Counted from the first letter of the stretch, positions 4,674 through 34,678 are shown. The stretch is 64,000 nt of DNA from Halioxenophilus sp. WMMB6 (GCF_033283405.1 NZ_JAWMQR010000007.1:148807-212806), one strand, 5' to 3'. Numbers and translations are program-made. Notes: generated by a model not told the origin, from the letters alone.

Positions 4674-5995
4674 TGTCCCACGAAATGATCGCGCTGATGA
4701 TGTTTTCGTTGATGATGCTGTTGATGGTCACCGGCCAGCGGGTGTTTGCCGCCATTGGCGCCGTGGCCGCCTTCTCCGCCCTGGCATTGTGGGGCACCGG
4801 CGGCTCGGATATCCCCTTCTCGGCGGCGATGAAGCTGATGAGCTGGTACCCGCTACTGACGCTGCCCATGTTTATCTTTATGGGCTATGTACTGTCGGAG
4901 TCGCGCATTGCCGATGACCTCTACCAGATGTTCCATGTCTGGATGGGGCCGGTGCCGGGCGGCCTGGCCATCGGTACTATCGCCTTGATGGTACTGGTCT
5001 CGGCCATGAATGGCCTGTCGGTGGCGGGCATGGCCATTGGCGCCACCATTGCCCTGCCGGAGCTGTTGCGCCGGGGTTACGACAAGAAAATGGTGACCGG
5101 TGTGGTGCAGGCCGGCTCCTCACTGGGAATTCTGGTACCGCCCTCGGTGGTGCTCGTGCTCTACGCCATGATTGCCCGCCAGCCGGTGGGCCAGCTGTGG
5201 CTGGCGGGGGTGATGCCCGGGCTGGTGATGGCGGCCCTGTTTATCGTCTACATCGCCATTCGCTGCCGGCTGCAGCCGAGCCTGGGGCCGGTGCTGCCCA
5301 AGGCCGAGCGCCAGGTGAGCCTGGCGGAGAAACTGCGCCTGCTGCGTGCCGGCCTGCTGCCCATCGTTATTTTTGCGGTGATGATGGTGCCTTTTGTCAA
5401 CGGCTGGACCAGCCTGGTGGAGAGCTCCGCCCTGGGTGCCATCGCCGCGCTGATTGCCGCTTTTCTTAAACGCCGCCTCACCCTGCCGGTGTTCGAAAAC
5501 TCGGTGCGCCAGACCCTGGGCATCTCCTGCATGTTTATGTGGATCATTCTGGCGGCGCTGGGTTTTGGAGCGGTGTTTGATGGCTTGGGGGCGGTGAAGG
5601 CGATCGATCACCTCTTTACCGATCAACTCGGACTCAACCCGTGGATGATCCTGATTCTGATGCAGCTCTCGTTTCTGATTATGGGCACCTTCCTGGACGA
5701 CACCGCCATGCTGGTGATCGTCGCTCCGCTCTACGTGCCGTTGGTGCAGCACCTGGGTTTCGACCTGATCTGGTATGGCGTGCTCTACACCATCACCACC
5801 CAGGTGGCCTACATGACGCCACCGTTTGGCTACAACCTGTTTTTAATGAGGGCCATGGCGCCGCCGGAGATCAGCCTGCGCGACATCTATGGCTCTATCT
5901 GGCCGTTTGTATCGGTGATGATCCTGGCTCTGGTGTTGGTGATGCTCTTCCCGCAAATGGCGCTCTGGTTACCGGAGAGTGTCTACGGCAAATAA
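4673..5995 (+). CDS. dctM: TRAP transporter large permease (DctM family)
   Basis: About 440 aa polytopic membrane protein. ATG at 4673 overlaps the dctQ stop (TGATG) with GAGGAG upstream. DctM-like sequence throughout. Confidence 0.88.
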   Translation: MSHEMIALMMFSLMMLLMVTGQRVFAAIGAVAAFSALALWGTGGSDIPFSAAMKLMSWYPLLTLPMFIFMGYVLSESRIADDLYQMFHVWMGPVPGGLAIGTIALMVLVSAMNGLSVAGMAIGATIALPELLRRGYDKKMVTGVVQAGSSLGILVPPSVVLVLYAMIARQPVGQLWLAGVMPGLVMAALFIVYIAIRCRLQPSLGPVLPKAERQVSLAEKLRLLRAGLLPIVIFAVMMVPFVNGWTSLVESSALGAIAALIAAFLKRRLTLPVFENSVRQTLGISCMFMWIILAALGFGAVFDGLGAVKAIDHLFTDQLGLNPWMILILMQLSFLIMGTFLDDTAMLVIVAPLYVPLVQHLGFDLIWYGVLYTITTQVAYMTPPFGYNLFLMRAMAPPEISLRDIYGSIWPFVSVMILALVLVMLFPQMALWLPESVYGK

Positions 5996-6077
5996 GTGTC
6001 TACGGCAAATAATCGACTGTGAGTGAAATAGATTCCGCAAGTACCGCGCAATTCATACAAACACAAGGAGAACAACC

Positions 6078-7118
6078 ATGAAGTCACGACGTAGCTTTTT
6101 AACCGGTGCCGCCGCCCTGGCCGGTACCGCCGCCCTAACACCGCCCAAACTGTTTGCCGCCAAGCCGAAGATCACCTGGCGGATGCAGACCTACGCCGGT
6201 CCGGCCCTGGCCGAGCATGTGATTAAACCGGCGATTGAGAGCTTCAATAAAATTGCCGGCGAAGAGATGCAGATCGAACTCTATTTTGCCGACCAGCTGG
6301 TCCCCACCGGTGAGCTGTTCCGCGCTCTGCAGAAGGGAACCCTGGATGCGGTGCAGTCGGACGACGACTCCATGGCCTCACCTACCGAAGTGACCGTGTT
6401 TGGTGGCTACTTCCCGTTTGCCAGCCGCTATTCGCTGGATGTGCCGGTGCTGTTCAACCAGTACGGACTGAAAGAGATCTGGGAGGAGGAGTACGCCAAG
6501 GTGGGTGTTAAACACATCTCGGCCGGCTCCTGGGATCCGTGCCACTTCGCTACCAAAAAGCCGGTCAACAGCCTCAAGGATCTGAAAGGGCTGCGCGTGT
6601 TCACCTTCCCCACCGCTGGCCGCTTTATGGCCCAGTTTGGCGTGGTGCCCGTCTCCCTGCCCTGGGAGGATGTGGAGGTGGCGGTACAGACCGGTGAGCT
6701 GGATGGCATTGCCTGGTCGGGTATTACCGAGGATTACACCGTCGGCTGGGCCAATGTCACCGACTACTTTCTTACCAACAACATCTCCGGTGCCTGGATT
6801 GGCTCCTTCTTTGCCAACATGGAGCGCTGGAACGAACTGCCCGACAAAATGAAAGAGCTGCTTAAACTCACCTTCGACAGCTCTCACTACTATCGCCAGT
6901 GGTGGTACTGGGGTGGCGAGGCCAAGCTGCGTGTCGATGGTACCAAGATGAAGTTGACCAGCATCCCCGATGCCGAGTGGGATCAGGTGGAGTCGGCGGC
7001 ACACACCTTCTGGGATGAGATTGCCAAGGAGTCGGAGATTAAGGCCAAGGTGGTGAAAATCTTCAAGCAGTACAACGAGGATATGGCCAAGGCCGGGCGG
7101 CCCTATCGCTACAGCTAA
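6078..7118 (+). CDS. dctP: TRAP transporter substrate-binding protein (DctP-type), Tat/Sec signal peptide
   Basis: AAGGAGA RBS. N-terminal MKSRRSFLTGAAALAGTAALT twin-arginine-like signal. Periplasmic binding protein-like sequence directly after dctQM. Confidence 0.82.
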   Translation: MKSRRSFLTGAAALAGTAALTPPKLFAAKPKITWRMQTYAGPALAEHVIKPAIESFNKIAGEEMQIELYFADQLVPTGELFRALQKGTLDAVQSDDDSMASPTEVTVFGGYFPFASRYSLDVPVLFNQYGLKEIWEEEYAKVGVKHISAGSWDPCHFATKKPVNSLKDLKGLRVFTFPTAGRFMAQFGVVPVSLPWEDVEVAVQTGELDGIAWSGITEDYTVGWANVTDYFLTNNISGAWIGSFFANMERWNELPDKMKELLKLTFDSSHYYRQWWYWGGEAKLRVDGTKMKLTSIPDAEWDQVESAAHTFWDEIAKESEIKAKVVKIFKQYNEDMAKAGRPYRYS

Positions 7119-8971: not shown

Positions 8972-9068
8972 GTTTACCCGGTGAAGTCGGTATCTGGCTG
9001 AATTACATTCGAGAAATGGCTGTATGACACGGCAGCGGATGGCTGGCTGCCGATCAACAACTATCCCG

Positions 9069-9596
9069 CTATTGTTCGCTGCTTGCCTCGCGTCGCTGCA
9101 GTATCGCTTGCCAAAGTTGACCGTAGGCCTCCTGACCCTGCAAATTATCTTTGCAGATGGTTATGGAGTTTTGCATTTTGACCACAAAGTTCTGTTCGGG
9201 ATGAGCTAAAGAGGATTGCATATCCTGTTGAATTGCGACATTGATACGTCGACGCAACTTGGCGCCGGCTTCGCGGGCCGGGGGAAATGCCAGCTTAAAA
9301 TCATCGTAAGAGAGATTAAACGGATAGTCCCGGCTGAACAGCGTCATATCCACTGCCAGGGCGGCGCCATTGCGCAGCTCTTTGGCTTTCTGTGAATTTT
9401 CAGGGTGCTGCTCCGCCAGGGTGTCGGCCATGATGTCGTACAGGACGGCACAGGTTGCCCAGGCTTCGGCCTGCTGCGCTTTGTTTTCGATTTGGGCAAT
9501 GGGCTTGTTGATCAGCAGATAACTGTCGATCTGCGCGTGACAGAGGGCGGGCAGGCAGAGTAAAAAAAACGGGATCAATAATTGTCGGGTGGTCAT
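9069..9596 (-). CDS. hypothetical periplasmic/secreted protein
   Basis: 175 aa with N-terminal signal peptide MTTRQLLIPFFLLCLPALCHAQ. No recognisable domain. Confidence 0.55.
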   Translation of the reverse strand: MTTRQLLIPFFLLCLPALCHAQIDSYLLINKPIAQIENKAQQAEAWATCAVLYDIMADTLAEQHPENSQKAKELRNGAALAVDMTLFSRDYPFNLSYDDFKLAFPPAREAGAKLRRRINVAIQQDMQSSLAHPEQNFVVKMQNSITICKDNLQGQEAYGQLWQAILQRREASSEQ

Positions 9597-9844
9597 TACG
9601 TAAAGCCTTGCAAGCAGGAGGGAGCTGGGCGGTTACTATAGCCAGAGCCTTGGCGACTGGCCAGAGAGTGTCAACATTGAGCGGCCTGCCGTGAGTTGGT
9701 TCCCTTGCCAAATCGCTCATTGGGTGATGCTAGGTGCGTAATAAACTGCCAGGGCCGAAAAAAGGGTCAACGCGGGTAGGATGGGATTTACATCGCAGTG
9801 GCCAATAACTCGTTTCCCAGCGGGGTATGCTCCGGCGCTAACCG

Positions 9845-25418: not shown

Positions 25419-26627
25419 ATGCCTATTAAAATGGAATTAAACAAAAATAGCGGCAACGGTGGTAAGCCGGTAAAAATTTATACGCATGACATTGAACAGA
25501 CAGCACTTACGCAGTTAAAAAATATTGCGCAACTACCATTTATTCACTCCCATATTGCCGCTATGCCGGATGTGCATACTGGTATAGGGGCAACGGTCGG
25601 TTCAGTGATTCCCACCGTGGCTGCCATTATTCCCGCCGCCGTGGGTGTTGATATCGGCTGTGGCATGATGGCAGTACAGCTCTCATTAAACTCGGCACAA
25701 CTGCCCGATGGTTTGGCGGCTATGCGCAGTGCTATTGAGCGGGCCGTGCCGGTGGGGCTGGCAGCACACAAAACGGTTGCTGTGCGGGAGAGCGCCTGCA
25801 AGCGCTTGCAGCCGCAGGTAGAGGCGCTGTTTGAACGCCACCCGCAATTGTTAAAAATGCAGAAGCACCCCAGGCAAACCTGGGCCAAGCAGGTCGCCAC
25901 GTTGGGTTCGGGTAACCACTTTATTGAAGTGTGTATCGACGAATCGAAAAAAGTGTGGGTGATGTTGCACAGTGGTAGTCGCGGGATTGGTAACAGCATC
26001 GGCCGTTACTTTATTCAGTTGGCCAAAAAAGATATGCAAGGTCATATTCATCATCTACCCGACAGAGACCTGGCGTACTTTGCTGAAGGCAATGACCATT
26101 TTGCCGACTATGTGGCGGCGGTGGAGTTTGCCCAGGAGTACGCGCGGATCAATCGGGAAGAGATGATGAAACTGGTGTTGCGCGCTATACAGCCTTTTCT
26201 ACCGGGCTTTGTTCTGCAAAAAGAGGCGATTAATTGTCACCATAATTATGTGGCGCGTGAACACCACTTTGATGCTGACGTGTATGTTACCCGCAAGGGG
26301 GCCATCAATGCCGAGCATGGGCGCTTGGGAATTATTCCCGGCAGTATGGGGGCTAAATCCTACATTGTGCGCGGTAAGGGTGAAGCGGAATCATTTTGCT
26401 CCTGCTCGCACGGTGCCGGCCGCACCATGAGCCGTACTGCGGCGAAAATGCAGTTTCGGCGCGAGGATTTAATTGCTCAGACCCGCGGTGTTGAGTGTCG
26501 TAAGGATGCTCACGTCATTGATGAAATTCCCGCGGCCTACAAAGATATCGACGAGGTGATGACCAATCAAACTGACCTGGTTGATATCGAACACACACTT
26601 AAGCAGGTACTTTGTGTGAAGGGCTAG
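25419..26627 (+). CDS. rtcB: RNA-splicing ligase RtcB (3'-phosphate/5'-hydroxyl RNA ligase)
   Basis: 402 aa. Conserved RtcB motifs (DVHTGIG, GSGNHF, HSGSRGIG, CSHGAGR) seen directly in the translation. Confidence 0.9.
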   Translation: MPIKMELNKNSGNGGKPVKIYTHDIEQTALTQLKNIAQLPFIHSHIAAMPDVHTGIGATVGSVIPTVAAIIPAAVGVDIGCGMMAVQLSLNSAQLPDGLAAMRSAIERAVPVGLAAHKTVAVRESACKRLQPQVEALFERHPQLLKMQKHPRQTWAKQVATLGSGNHFIEVCIDESKKVWVMLHSGSRGIGNSIGRYFIQLAKKDMQGHIHHLPDRDLAYFAEGNDHFADYVAAVEFAQEYARINREEMMKLVLRAIQPFLPGFVLQKEAINCHHNYVAREHHFDADVYVTRKGAINAEHGRLGIIPGSMGAKSYIVRGKGEAESFCSCSHGAGRTMSRTAAKMQFRREDLIAQTRGVECRKDAHVIDEIPAAYKDIDEVMTNQTDLVDIEHTLKQVLCVKG

Positions 26628-31423: not shown

Positions 31424-32578
31424 CTATTGCGCGCTTGTGGCTGGTGCTAGTTTCACCAGGCCGTGTAGCACACTGTCGAGGCCACCATAAACCGAAATTT
31501 TGTCGATCTTGGTGGTGATCCTTTCCAGCGCTTCCAGCTCTTTCAAACGCAGCAACACCGGGTTGTTCTCCATCACTTTGGCGGTGTTGTGCAGCGAGCG
31601 CATCGCCTGGGTCTCTTCATGGCGTTTAATCAGGTTGGCTTCAGCCTCCTTTTGCGCCTCCACTACCTGGTTTAAGATCTGCTTCATGTCGCCAGGCAAA
31701 ATAATATCTTTCACCCCAACACTTAACAGGTTGATACCGTAATCGGTCACCCGGTTGCGCACGCCCTCGGCAATCACCGCGTTTAACAGATCCTTGTCGA
31801 CTAACAGTTCATCCAGGTTTTTAGTACCTACCGCTTCCCGTAAGCGCAGTTGCAGCTCCAAGTACAAGAAGTTGAGGTAGTCCTTCAGCTGCAGTGCCAC
31901 CGATTTTGCATCGACAATTTTAAAGCTGGCGGTCAGGTTGATACGCAGGCTCACGCGATCCTTGGTGAGAATCTCCTGCCCGCTAACGTCCAGAGTTTGC
32001 AGGCGCAAATCGACCAGCTTAACGCTGATTGAGCGGTTGTATAACCAAAATCCGTAACGGCCAGTGGTCAACATCTTCTCCAGCTTGCCGTTAACAAACA
32101 GCATGCCCACCTGCTCATCGGGTACCTCGCTGTAACTGATGGCCTGTGCCAGGGTGCGGTTGTTAGCCAGGGTGGCTCCCCGGCCCAACAGGCCAATCAC
32201 GTCGTCGCCGATTTGATAATCGCTGGTGATATCCACCACACTGACGCTAACCTGCTCACCGCCGCGCCAGGTGGCCAACAGGCCCCCGGGTGGCAGAATA
32301 TCCGCCAGCTTGCCATCGCGATAGACGAGGCCGACTTCGCGGTCGGTCAGCTGCACCGCATCCACCACCCCGTCAAACAGCGGCTGGTACTGGCGCAATA
32401 AAAATTTCAGTCGCGGGTGGTTAAATTCCACGGCGGTAATATCGTAGTGCTCCACCCGCAAATCCTGCCCTAATGCCCACAGTCGTTGTCGACCGGGCAT
32501 TAAAATGGTTGCCAGGCGGTTGCGTCGGTAAACCAGGGCCCGCTCGTTATCGGCAACGTCGATCATTTTCCATAACAT
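31424..32578 (-). CDS. SPFH/band-7 (stomatin-like) domain protein with two extra N-terminal partial SPFH-like modules, no obvious TM anchor
   Basis: GGAGG RBS. C-terminal canonical SPFH region (KLVDLRLQTLDV...VIAEGVRNRVTDYGINLLSVGVKDIILP...EAQKEAEANL). Three repeats of an (E/R)xVGLVYRxGKLxxIL-like module. Confidence 0.8.
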   Translation of the reverse strand: MLWKMIDVADNERALVYRRNRLATILMPGRQRLWALGQDLRVEHYDITAVEFNHPRLKFLLRQYQPLFDGVVDAVQLTDREVGLVYRDGKLADILPPGGLLATWRGGEQVSVSVVDITSDYQIGDDVIGLLGRGATLANNRTLAQAISYSEVPDEQVGMLFVNGKLEKMLTTGRYGFWLYNRSISVKLVDLRLQTLDVSGQEILTKDRVSLRINLTASFKIVDAKSVALQLKDYLNFLYLELQLRLREAVGTKNLDELLVDKDLLNAVIAEGVRNRVTDYGINLLSVGVKDIILPGDMKQILNQVVEAQKEAEANLIKRHEETQAMRSLHNTAKVMENNPVLLRLKELEALERITTKIDKISVYGGLDSVLHGLVKLAPATSAQ

Positions 32579-32880
32579 AATCGTTCCTCCATTAATGATC
32601 GTTTCTCTATTATTAATTTAAAGCGAGGCTCACTGAGCCGGGTCGCGGCTAACGGTTTGGCTTGTTCAGGCGAAGACTCAGGTGTTTGCCGGCAGCCATA
32701 GGCGATGACAAAAGCCACCCGACGGTTGAAGACAAAACCAGAAGCCTGCGCGTGCACAAGCCACCCACCATGAGCGGTTACCCGGCTCGGGTTGGTTTGA
32801 ACCGCATTACCTGAACTGCCGGCAAAGACGGAATCTGGCCAACCGTGAACCTCTAGTTGATTTATAAACAAGCACCATAA

Positions 32881-32940
32881 GCTTGTGAGGACTCGAACCT
32901 CTGGGTCTCTCGACCTCTACCATTGAGCCGTTTACACGGC
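32881..32940 (-). other. tRNA-like remnant (D-arm-like GCTCAATGGTAGAG plus T-arm-like GAGGTTCGAGTCCTC, no anticodon arm)
   Basis: Motifs seen directly. Only about 13 nt between the D- and T-arm motifs. Followed by a CAAGC-TTATGGT-GCTTG hairpin. Confidence 0.4.
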
Positions 32941-32942
32941 GG

Positions 32943-33016
32943 AGTTTTTGGCGGGATTCGAACCCGCTACCGATAGATTATTAATCTACTGCTCTACCCG
33001 AATGAGCTACAAAAAC
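32943..33016 (-). tRNA. non-canonical tRNA-like gene: full 74-nt cloverleaf, anticodon loop TTAATAA (anticodon AAT), acceptor stem GUUUUUG/CAAAAAC, no encoded CCA
   Basis: Manual fold: 7-bp acceptor, D-arm GCTC-ATTCGGGTA-GAGC, anticodon stem GTAGA/TCTAT (part of the perfect palindrome TAGATTAATAATCTA), variable loop CGGTA, T-arm GCGGG-TTCGAAT-CCCGC. Confidence 0.45.
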
Positions 33017-33145
33017 GGTGGTTTATGTCCACCCGGCAATTGGTACACACAACGGTAGTACCGCCTGCGCCGGACTGGCCTTTGGAACCAGTGCCGCTAA
33101 TTACCGGGCGAGAGATAAACTCTGTGTGGCCAATGCCTAAAAAAA

Positions 33146-33703
33146 TTAGGCTTGAGGCCAAATCCGGTTTCCGGAAAATTGCTTCTCCAGATACTCCATT
33201 TGATCCGCCAGTACTTGGTGTTGGGCCAAAAACAGCCCTTCACTCCGGTTGGGGCAGAAAGGCACCGCCAGTAACACCATGCCCGCCTGTTCCGGTGTAC
33301 GGTCGGCTTTAAAGTGGTTGCAGCGCTTACAGGCGGCCACCACATTTTGCCAACGGTTTTGGCCGCCCTGTGCGCGCGGCACAATGTGGTCGCAGGTGAG
33401 CTCACGGGCTAAAAAGCGCTGACCACAATACATACAACGGTAGTTATCCCGGCGAAACAGCAGCCGGTTGCACAAAGGTGGCGCCGGCTGTGCTTGCTGC
33501 TCCCGGCCGCGAGTGGCGATAATGGCGCGCAGAGCAATGTGGGAGCGCTGGCCGCTTGCCCGATTTACACCGCCGGTCAGGTTGAAAATTAACTCGCCCA
33601 GCTCCCACTGCACCTGATTTTTTACATAGAGCAGCGCTGCCTCCGAGCGGGATAGCCAGGCGGTGGCGGTGCCGGTGCTATCCAGGCGCAAGATGCTAAC
33701 CAT
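33146..33703 (-). CDS. HNH endonuclease family protein
   Basis: AGGAGA RBS. HNH motif CMYCGQRF...CDHIVPRAQGGQNRWQNVVAACKRCNHFKADR seen directly. Confidence 0.8.
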   Translation of the reverse strand: MVSILRLDSTGTATAWLSRSEAALLYVKNQVQWELGELIFNLTGGVNRASGQRSHIALRAIIATRGREQQAQPAPPLCNRLLFRRDNYRCMYCGQRFLARELTCDHIVPRAQGGQNRWQNVVAACKRCNHFKADRTPEQAGMVLLAVPFCPNRSEGLFLAQHQVLADQMEYLEKQFSGNRIWPQA

Positions 33704-33721: not shown

Positions 33722-34012
33722 TTACCGATAAAAATTTGCGCCATCGATGGATCGATAGCCGCAACTGTTTAAAAGCGTGCCGAGCTGTGCCCGCCGGCTG
33801 CGATCAGATTCGGTCAGCACCACTCTGTTCGGTAGCCGTGATCGGCTTTGCGCCCAGCGTAAAACCACACAGCTGTTGTCCCGTCCGTGTAGTGAAAAGT
33901 CGACCGCCAACACCGAGATGACCAATTCGTTCAGCGCCTTTTTAGCGCTGCGGCTGTCTCTGCAGTAGAGGTCTGCACTGAACACAGCGCGTTTACCCAA
34001 AGCGACTCGCAT
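33722..34012 (-). CDS. hypothetical protein (96 aa), co-oriented 18 nt upstream of HNH gene
   Basis: Very strong SD (AAGGAGGAG) before ATG 34012. Lies directly downstream of the tRNA-Lys gene. No recognisable domain. Confidence 0.45.
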   Translation of the reverse strand: MRVALGKRAVFSADLYCRDSRSAKKALNELVISVLAVDFSLHGRDNSCVVLRWAQSRSRLPNRVVLTESDRSRRAQLGTLLNSCGYRSIDGANFYR

Positions 34013-34051: not shown

Positions 34052-34126
34052 TGGTTGGAGGTATGGGAGTCGAACCCATCTGTGCCGGAGTAAAAGTCCG
34101 GTGCTCTGCCGCTAAGCCAACCCCCA
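34052..34126 (-). tRNA. tRNA-Lys (anticodon UUU), CCA encoded
   Basis: Manual cloverleaf: acceptor TGGGGGT/ACCTCCA, anticodon arm CCGGA-CTTTTAC-TCCGG, T-arm ATGGG-TTCGACT-CCCAT, discriminator A then CCA. Confidence 0.8.
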
Positions 34127-34168
34127 ATAAAAATCCTTGGTCAATTTGTCTGCTTTACTGCCGAATAA

Positions 34169-34243
34169 TGGCAGCAGCCTCAGGGCTCGAACCTGAAATA
34201 CGTGAGTCAAAGTCACGTGTGTTACCCATTACACCAGGCTGCT
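34169..34243 (-). tRNA. tRNA-Gln (anticodon UUG), CCA encoded
   Basis: Manual cloverleaf: acceptor AGCAGCC/GGCTGCT, D-arm GTGT-AATGGGTA-ACAC, anticodon arm CGTGA-CTTTGAC-TCACG, T-arm TCAGG-TTCGAGC-CCTGA, discriminator G then CCA. Confidence 0.8.
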
Positions 34244-34279
34244 GGAGTACTAAATTTAATGGTGATCAATATCATTGGC

Positions 34280-34366
34280 TGGCAGCGGTGAGATTCGAAC
34301 TGACACGGCGCCGCAAGTCACCGCACGGATTAGTAATCCGCTGCCGTACCGTTCAGCCATGCTGCC
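34280..34366 (-). tRNA. type II (long variable arm) tRNA-like gene with anticodon loop TTACTAA (anticodon ACT; Ser-like), mismatches in acceptor (A7:C66) and T-stem (C:C); possible pseudo-tRNA
   Basis: Manual fold: GGCAGCA-TG-GCTG-AACGGTA-CGGC-A-GCGGA-TTACTAA-TCCGT, about 20-nt variable arm, GTCAG-TTCGAAT-CTCAC, CGCTGCC-A. No CCA. Confidence 0.4.
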
Positions 34367-34410
34367 AATAATCTTCCCGTTTGAGTTTTCTGGCTCGCTT
34401 GGCCATAAAA

Positions 34411-34439
34411 AAACCCCGGGGTTGCCCACCGGGGTTTTT
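34411..34439. terminator. bidirectional terminator-like hairpin (A7-ccccgg-ggttgccca-ccgggg-T5)
   Basis: Seen directly, upstream of the minus-strand tRNA array. A second 7-bp hairpin ccggaagg...ccttccg follows. Confidence 0.5.
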
Positions 34440-34639
34440 GCGAACCGGAAGGCATCAGCCTTCCGCGGAATGCTGATATTAAAACAAAATAAGCGCCTGG
34501 CTTAGGCCGAAGCTCTGGTCGTCACACAGGTGGCCACTGGTCGCTATTAACAGTGTTTTGGCAGCGTGGACGGCAATCGCTTGCAGGTGACCTATTGGTT
34601 GTTGGTTCATCGCTATTCTTAATTGGGTAGTCATTAATT

Positions 34640-34678
34640 TGTTTTCTGTTTTCTGTTTTCTGTTTTCTGTTTTCTGTC
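34640..34678. repeat. heptanucleotide microsatellite (TGTTTTC)x5.5
   Basis: Seen directly. Followed by hairpin ctcgct-tgcgatagc-agcgag plus T5 (plus-strand terminator-like). Confidence 0.95.

Follow-up and report, generated by a model that had tools for sequence, protein, structure and literature searches.

What does a bacterium do with a complete transfer RNA (tRNA) gene whose anticodon bacteria do not normally use? The gene in question, which would carry the anticodon AAU, lies on the minus strand at positions 32943-33016 of a 64,000-nt stretch of Halioxenophilus sp. WMMB6 (GCF_033283405.1 NZ_JAWMQR010000007.1:148807-212806), referred to here as the window. A sequence-only reading of this DNA had already remarked that AAU is abnormal for bacteria, and we agree: to our knowledge, bacteria use GAU, CAU with lysidine, and UAU, and AAU is not normally among them. 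Our analysis indicates that the gene is probably a new member, with a drifted anticodon loop, of the predicted b7a-tRNA family, that is, a non-decoding tRNA mimic which precedes the stomatin-like Band-7 gene of RtcB-type repair loci and mobile tRNA arrays, and which forms one module of a leader RNA of ~570 nt. The sequence-only reading had listed a decoy or regulatory tRNA-like RNA among its suggestions, and this comes close to our preferred explanation, in which a mimic without decoding function is linked with an RNA-repair locus. In the passage of Wang et al. (bioRxiv 10.1101/312249) that treats it, b7a-tRNA (Burroughs & Aravind, NAR 2016) is described as a predicted non-coding RNA beside Band-7 and RtcB with a strong resemblance to tRNA, unvalidated and possibly redundant with YrlA; within the literature searched, only this preprint mentions b7a-tRNA.

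An intact cloverleaf with an AAU anticodon

ARAGORN called a tRNA-Ile (aat) at 32941-33016, within which the gene is delimited as follows:

32943-33016, minus strand: candidate b7a-type tRNA-like gene, 74 nt including the discriminator U (ARAGORN, Rfam RF00005, orthologues)

The covariance-model check proposed with the sequence-only reading gave 67.2 bits against RF00005 (E = 1.8e-12), well over the gathering score of 29 and the top RF00005 score among the four tRNAs of the window, with no non-canonical pairs. The minimum free energy (MFE) fold of the single sequence was likewise the cloverleaf (-21.4 kcal/mol, z = -3.1), so that ARAGORN, RF00005 and the MFE fold agree on the complete 74-nt cloverleaf that had been read at this position, and place it on the minus strand.

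The arm-by-arm anatomy given earlier was also right, save for three small corrections. The acceptor stem GUUUUUG/CAAAAAC, which had been called A/U-only, has a closing G-C pair at each end (G1-C72 and G7-C66) with five U-A pairs between them. The D arm reads GCUC-AUUCGGGUA-GAGC, the anticodon arm GUAGA-UUAAUAA-UCUAU, the variable loop CGGUA and the T arm GCGGG-UUCGAAU-CCCGC. At the 3' end, where no CCA had been seen, the U discriminator is followed by CCG; CC is thus encoded and just the terminal A of CCA is missing. Finally, TAGATTAATAATCTA, described as a perfect 15-nt palindrome, is a 6-bp inverted repeat (TAGATT/AATCTA) flanking the 3-nt AAT, and corresponds to the anticodon stem lengthened by U32-A38 and U33-A37.

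Orthologues keep the body of the molecule and vary its loop

The element is far beyond chance, being conserved in 14 other loci, each of which holds an orthologous tRNA in the same slot, ~370-440 nt upstream of a Band-7/SPFH gene; in the window, 365 nt separate the end of the tRNA from the start codon of Band-7, which shares its strand. Members were found by scanning with one pattern taken from the tRNA and another from its upstream flank, the latter therefore independent of the tRNA sequence. These scans yielded members in Cellvibrionaceae genomes, Marinibactrum, Ca. Endobugula and metagenomes (two true members among the 120 matches listed for the metagenome scan), and Band-7 homologues led to further members in Saccharophagus degradans, Microbulbifer and Marinobacterium. 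The tallies that follow are based on 15 loci, the window plus the 14 others, from marine Gammaproteobacteria.

The acceptor 5' strand was GUUUUUG in 12 of the 15 loci and UGUUUUG, (U)ACUUUG or UGCUUUG in the remaining three, the D stem paired GCUC with GAGC (AAGC in L146), and the T arm was standard throughout. The anticodon loop was CUCAUAA in eight members, UUCAUAA, UUUAUAA and UUAAUAA (the window) in one each, and non-canonical in four, namely GAGCA (5 nt), UAUGAU (6 nt), a loop of ~6 nt, and UCAAACA (7 nt, no U33). Expressed as anticodons, this amounts to nine CAU, one UAU, one AAU found in the window only, and four non-canonical loops. The discriminator was A, U or G, and a 3' CCA was encoded in 7/15 members as well as in all three other tRNAs of the window's cluster. 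What is conserved is thus the L-shaped body, the U-rich acceptor and the flanking RNA domains, and not the loop, the discriminator or CCA; the freedom of these three to vary within the family argues for a non-decoding role. In an alignment of the 5' half of the leader from 11 sequences, the anticodon and T stems covaried, while the acceptor and D stems were invariant, which suggests sequence-specific recognition.

The nearest relatives by Band-7 identity (L142, L006 and L013; 70-72%) all carry CAU, indicating that AAU is derived in the window by C34A plus C32U; the closest of them, L142, combines U73 with a CAU loop and CCA. The tRNA in the same slot of a metagenomic contig (L005) has an identical acceptor, GUUUUUG/CAAAAAC, and the loop CUCAUAA. 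Full arrays contain three other CAU tRNAs, one with a mismatch at 1:72, as is typical of initiators, and another Ile2-like, so the Band-7-linked tRNA is a redundant fourth CAU species. These comparisons suggest that AAU most likely arose by drift from an ancestral CAU loop (CUCAUAA to UUAAUAA) in a loop that would not be used for decoding. Annotators should be cautious, as tRNA finders will label such mimics tRNA-Met, Ile, Phe or "undetermined".

A larger structured RNA around the cloverleaf

Conservation among the loci covers everything from the HNH gene (or RtcB/RtcA) to Band-7. This interval contains a multi-domain leader RNA of ~570 nt (about 560-630) that extends up to ~35 nt before the ribosome-binding site (RBS) of Band-7, with modules in the order domain I, tRNA, hairpin, elbow-like mini-tRNA, hairpin and rod-like domain II:

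33021-33121, minus strand: domain I, Y-shaped, directly upstream of the tRNA (MFE -51.6 kcal/mol, z = -3.8, 0/200 shuffles as stable)
32927-32940, minus strand: hairpin 1, GCCGU-GUAA-ACGGC, directly 3' of the tRNA (read from the sequence)
32887-32926, minus strand: mini tRNA-like (elbow-like) module with UCAAUGGUAGA (conserved in 15/15 loci)
32868-32886, minus strand: hairpin 3, ACAAGC-UUAUGGU-GCUUGU (helix 13, compensatory changes in 4/5 pairs)
32625-32853, minus strand: domain II, rod-like, closed by a long-range 9-bp helix

For the 5' half, a consensus was computed with RNAalifold on 11 sequences, using slid partners and 500 shuffles as controls. The consensus comprised the Y-shaped domain I and the cloverleaf, together with three hairpins, one of GNRA type, one T-arm-like and a third one, with 95.9% of cells paired against 38-43% for slid partners and 24 compensatory pairs against 5-11, values that 0/500 shuffles attained. 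Within domain I, which contains an invariant CUGGUUC...CCAG hairpin and a GUGUACC motif, consensus helices 1-6 showed compensatory changes. Most relatives have an equivalent of hairpin 1, GUCGU-N7-ACGAC, which L009 and L010 lack. The mini-tRNA includes the GNRA hairpin GGUC-GAGA-GACC (32915-32904) and the T-arm-like hairpin GAGG-UUCGAGU-CCUC (32901-32887), and its helices 11 and 12 have two compensatory pairs each; neither ARAGORN nor Rfam called a tRNA in this module.

The closing helix of domain II joins GAGGUUCAC (32853-32845) to GUGAGCCUC (32633-32625), with the consensus GAGGYYCAY and RUGRRCCUC; 99.2% of its cells are paired versus 33-53% when slid, and five of its nine pairs show compensatory changes. 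Over the whole of domain II, the 49 predicted pairs were 89.3% paired versus 35-48% when slid, with 33 compensatory pairs and 0/500 shuffles as high. The window copy keeps 64/67 consensus pairs in the 5' half, and the three lost pairs all fall in one domain I helix, for which the window has a perfect 12-bp version of its own. This retention of the consensus structure indicates that the window copy is maintained and not decaying. Searching the leader flanks against Rfam at E up to 5 returned the tRNA only and no other family. A sigma-54 promoter (TGGCAC-N5-TTG in domain I of L005) was considered and rejected, given that its -12 element is unconserved and the region covaries as RNA helices.

Whether the tRNA is best regarded as one domain of an uncatalogued, covariation-supported RNA that leads Band-7 genes in RtcB operons and tRNA arrays, with the whole RNA perhaps acting as the partner of a cage-forming SPFH protein, is a proposal we put forward tentatively and at somewhat less than even chances. 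If it is true, a new RNA-repair ribonucleoprotein would stand alongside Ro60-Y RNA, and the hypervariable "anticodon" loop could be a surface that engages tRNA-cleaving toxins. The large structured RNA surrounding the tRNA is the most interesting lead from this locus.

Gene context in the window and in relatives

On the minus strand, the genes run in the order tRNA-Ser(ACU), tRNA-Gln(UUG), tRNA-Lys(UUU), a 96-aa open reading frame (ORF), a 185-aa HNH gene, the AAU tRNA and then Band-7. The features concerned, together with an RtcB gene on the other strand, are:

31424-32578, minus strand: Band-7/SPFH (stomatin-like, "slipin") protein, 384 aa (Pfam Band_7, E = 1.7e-31)
33146-33703, minus strand: HNH endonuclease, 185 aa, upstream of the leader RNA (Pfam HNH_5, E = 1.6e-16)
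33722-34012, minus strand: orf96, small conserved protein (tblastn 40-53% identity beside HNH in L001, L005, L006, L010 and L013)
34052-34367, minus strand: short tRNA cluster, Ser(ACU) 34367-34276, Gln(UUG) 34243-34169 and Lys(UUU) 34126-34052 (ARAGORN and Rfam)
25419-26627, plus strand: RtcB RNA ligase, stand-alone (Pfam RtcB, E = 8.8e-126)

The Band-7 gene, preceded by the RBS GGAGGA at 32590-32585, encodes a protein that matches the stomatin structure 3bk6 of the PDB at E = 8e-26, and full-length orthologues 61-72% identical to it follow the tRNA in other loci (for L010, the stretch examined contains the 5' end of the gene only). The HNH gene, situated between tRNA-Lys and the AAU tRNA, belongs to a family with 53-64% identity across marine Gammaproteobacteria that adjoins tRNA arrays in L001, L005, L006, L010, L013 and L142. 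Members of the orf96 family measure 96-98 aa (for example 4661-4957 in L001 and 4603-4896 in L005), and orf96 had no match in Pfam, PHROG, PADLOC or NCBIfam; a 97-aa gene at 5032-5325 of L144 (Saccharophagus), between RtcB and the tRNA with no HNH gene, presumably belongs to this family by its size and place. The Band-7, HNH and orf96 genes are all intact in the window. Its Band-7 and HNH proteins matched proteins of Halioxenophilus sp. WMMB6 at 100% identity, and an exact-protein look-up of the HNH returned no record. PADLOC returned generic HNH matches only (PtuB, Cas9), with neither Band-7 nor orf96 matched, and membership in a defence system was rejected.

The 3-tRNA cluster of the window is, by its tRNA sequences, the counterpart of the 9-27-tRNA arrays of relatives: its Gln and Lys tRNAs are 92-94% identical to array tRNAs of L005, L006 and L001. 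No tRNA or GOLLD remnants were detected upstream of the cluster. Its tRNA-Ser(ACU) presents a second A34 anticodon that bacteria do not normally use; it has a long variable arm, G73 and CCA, with stem mismatches (C-C in the T stem) and a score of 40.4 bits only. The array of L005 carries Ser(GCU), so that the Ser(ACU) of the window appears to be a degenerating copy altered by G34A. A strong hairpin resembling a terminator (CCCCGGUGGGCAACCCCGGGG, then a U run) at ~34408-34440 on the minus strand ends ~40 nt upstream of this gene, leaving scant room for a promoter of the short cluster. Upstream of the cluster and a 51-aa ORF lies a perfect heptamer microsatellite, (TGTTTTC) x 5.4 at 34640-34677 (ACAGAAA on the minus strand), which none of the related loci shares. 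Elsewhere the window carries ordinary chromosomal genes, among them TonB receptors, a GGDEF-EAL protein, a P450 and regulators.

In every relative with the element, the tRNA lies upstream of Band-7, and what precedes the pair differs. The order is RtcR, RtcB, (RtcA), tRNA, Band-7 in Microbulbifer and Marinobacterium, and RtcB, a 97-aa ORF (orf97), tRNA, Band-7 in Saccharophagus. In L005, whose HNH protein is 63% identical to that of the window, a 27-tRNA array with GOLLD RNA is followed by a small ORF, HNH, the tRNA, Band-7 and two genes for RlaP, a biochemically characterised nucleotidyltransferase whose substrate is damaged tRNA ends. Arrays of 9-27 tRNA genes plus HNH occur upstream in six loci. 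In L008-L011, the tRNA/Band-7 unit adjoins RtcB genes 54-59% identical to that of the window, and Pfam identifies further flanking RtcB genes in L144, L146 and L147.

Four further observations concern these relatives. The GOLLD RNA of L005 (3218-3699, 198 bits), with a tRNA-Gln(CUG) enclosed in it, is located within the array of 27 tRNAs, which ties GOLLD to the HNH/Band-7/RlaP type of island. The tRNA/Band-7/RtcB unit of L011 (JBLIMQ010000058.1), a metagenome-assembled genome labelled Flavobacteriales, is near-identical to that of Cellvibrionaceae (tRNA 90%, Band-7 67%), suggesting lateral transfer or a binning error. In Saccharophagus degradans (L144), a weak match to bacterial RNase A (PF18431) at 9023-9673, 2 kb downstream of RtcB/tRNA/Band-7, could represent an RNA-targeting toxin near a repair locus. 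In Zooshikella (L001), orf98-HNH and a 3-tRNA cluster are followed at 5650-6696 by an ATP-dependent RNA ligase (PF09414) in place of the tRNA/Band-7 pair; the orf98-HNH/tRNA module swaps RNA-repair partners.

Weighing the explanations

That the gene supplies a genuine decoding tRNA-Ile(AAU), with A34 or with I34 after deamination, to supplement the reading of AUU/AUC/AUA seems to us very improbable. The canonical 7-nt loop UUAAUAA with U33, A35-U36 and A37-A38 would suit such a role, and the three 7-nt position-34 variants of the close family (C, U, A) remain in the Ile/Met box; yet the anticodon is unconserved among orthologues, which carry CAU, UAU or non-canonical loops, the 3' CCA is not encoded, and the gene lies inside a structured mRNA leader. 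The determinants of E. coli IleRS are reportedly A73, C4-G69, U12-A23 and C29-G41, and here U73, U4-A69 and A29-U41 take their places with only U12-A23 kept. Bacterial TadA is regarded as specific for tRNA-Arg(ACG), which points away from reading by I34. Codon usage in the window (ATT 207, ATC 202, ATA 24) shows AUU and AUC equally used and AUA rare, so that the standard tRNA-Ile(GAU) suffices and no decoding gap exists. A blastn comparison with E. coli gave tRNA-Lys at 81% across the core only, which is uninformative for isotype. Given the unconserved anticodon, the missing IleRS elements and codons that need no extra decoder, the idea of a novel tRNA-Ile(AAU) decoder is unsupported, and the element is most likely not used to decode codons. 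A bacterial tRNA-Ile(AAU), if accepted as such, would run counter to decoding rules, but the evidence says that the anticodon is incidental. A different use for the loop would be that of a decoy or sponge for tRNA-cleaving toxins (PIN/VapC, PrrC/RloC or colicin-type), in which case its changes, AAU included, would record an arms race and not neutral drift. We rate this explanation as unlikely: in a molecule that is otherwise rigidly conserved, no part varies more than the loop, the Met, fMet and Ile2 tRNAs of these arrays share the CUCAUAA loop, and array tRNAs, which are co-regulated with RtcB, are cleaved during translational stress and have been suggested to be sponges for toxin RNases (Santamaria-Gomez et al. 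2021, PMC8421152), but the several members with 5-6-nt loops or without U33 would be poor mimics of an anticodon loop and no toxin gene is linked to the element in the window.

Decay offers another account of the AAU loop, with a former array tRNA-Met or tRNA-Ile2(CAU) undergoing C34A, C32U and loss of CCA as its array shrank from >20 tRNAs to 3. The reduced cluster, compared with 9-27 tRNAs in relatives, is in line with this account, as are the neighbouring tRNA-Ser, also at an unused anticodon (ACU versus GCU in L005) with mismatched stems and 40 bits, and the U discriminator with CCG where close relatives mostly have A73 and CCA. All four stems of the AAU tRNA are nevertheless perfect and its Rfam score is the best in the window, the flanking RNA keeps 64/67 pairs and its own 12-bp version of the domain I helix, and the Band-7, HNH and orf96 genes are undamaged; moreover, U73 also occurs in the closest relative beside a CAU loop and CCA, and non-canonical loops are common among members in intact rtcR-rtcB(A) operons. 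A pseudogene is therefore an improbable explanation. Origin from a phage, or as the relic of an attachment (att) site in which a tRNA end was duplicated after integration, has a probability close to nil, and we regard it as effectively refuted. The adjoining HNH endonuclease, the supposed mobility of tRNA arrays and a tRNA-like fragment 40 nt downstream speak for it, and both forms had been raised by the sequence-only reading; however, scans of IMG/VR with three patterns found no member of the b7a-type family, the neighbours are chromosomal, and no phage structural or integrase genes were present among those scanned. The downstream fragment turned out to belong to the same RNA as a module that is conserved and covaries in all relatives, and it is neither a repeat of the AAU tRNA nor an att duplication. 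A blastn search against 50,697 phage records matched solely the tRNAs themselves, and the best matches, tRNA-Lys of Vibrio phage D520 and tRNA-Met of Achromobacter phage Motura, shared the generic D- and T-arm consensus only and differed in their acceptor stems.

Several points also count against the explanation that we prefer, a non-decoding mimic of the b7a-tRNA family. The RtcB gene of the window lies 4.8 kb from Band-7 on the opposite strand, and its link to the element is uncertain; among the genes scanned in the neighbourhood there was no RtcR, RtcA or RlaP. Seven of the eight array-associated members have a CAU loop, so the anticodon may still matter in this subgroup, which could consist of true Met/Ile2-type tRNAs with the window as a loss-of-function variant. 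The role of the b7a-type family is itself a prediction, and the assignment to it leans on a secondary summary (bioRxiv 10.1101/312249) together with matching gene context.

Proposed role and comparison with known systems

Considering the non-decoding mimic as the probable identity of the element, we propose that the ~570-nt RNA would be transcribed together with Band-7 and could serve as the RNA partner of an oligomeric Band-7 scaffold, on which the tRNA-like modules may expose tRNA-binding surfaces for RtcB, or for other enzymes that handle tRNA, while cleaved tRNAs are being repaired. By analogy, the tRNA-like YrlA Y RNA with Ro60/Rsr in rsr-rtcBA operons would be the parallel. Culturable carriers, such as Saccharophagus degradans and Microbulbifer, make the idea directly testable.

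Compared with canonical tRNA-Ile2 (CAU with lysidine) and tRNA-Met, most family members share the CUCAUAA loop and a standard cloverleaf, but differ in the U-rich GUUUUUG acceptor, the variable discriminator and an anticodon that is not maintained across the wider family. L-arrays, defined as long tandem tRNA arrays of up to 43 genes in one operon, are found with a linked HNH gene and co-regulated with RtcB in cyanobacteria and other phyla, and are thought to be mobile (Santamaria-Gomez et al. 2021, PMC8421152); the terms "Band 7" and "SPFH" are absent from that paper. Our locus resembles them in its tRNA gene cluster, its conserved HNH gene and, in relatives, an association with RtcB, and relatives carry 9-27 tRNAs, one of them with GOLLD RNA, whereas the window has three tRNAs plus the b7a-type tRNA and falls short of a long array.

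YrlA of rsr-yrlBA-rtcBA operons (Chen et al. 2014; Wang et al. 2018) is likewise a tRNA mimic in RtcB repair loci that has conserved D- and T-arm elements and is no decoder, and for both mimics the proposed partner is a protein scaffold that forms a ring or cage, Ro60 there and Band-7 here. In contrast, YrlA has a circularly permuted form in which the acceptor stem is closed and the anticodon loop is lacking, while the element described here is a standard open-ended cloverleaf with a full anticodon arm, and the partner gene is Rsr there and Band-7 here. Consistent with this distinction, the window element had no Rfam match to Y RNA down to E = 5, and no Rsr/TROVE gene was present among the ORFs scanned around the locus, a scan that left small ORFs and the rest of the window outside its range.

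Set against b7a-tRNA, as far as the family is summarised by Wang et al. (bioRxiv 10.1101/312249), the window element agrees in its tRNA-like cloverleaf and in the adjacent downstream Band-7 gene, and RtcB adjoins the unit in the relatives L008-L011, L144, L146 and L147; the window element differs in its AAU loop (mostly CAU in the close relatives sampled), in an RtcB gene 4.8 kb away on the other strand, and in its shrunken tRNA-array/HNH context. The family provides a predicted link between a tRNA mimic, a stomatin-like scaffold and RNA repair by RtcB. To this, the present analysis adds the variability of loop, discriminator and CCA, the embedding of the mimic in a covarying RNA of ~570 nt that has no Rfam family, and a unit that joins canonical rtcR-rtcBA operons with mobile long tRNA arrays carrying HNH, RlaP and GOLLD.
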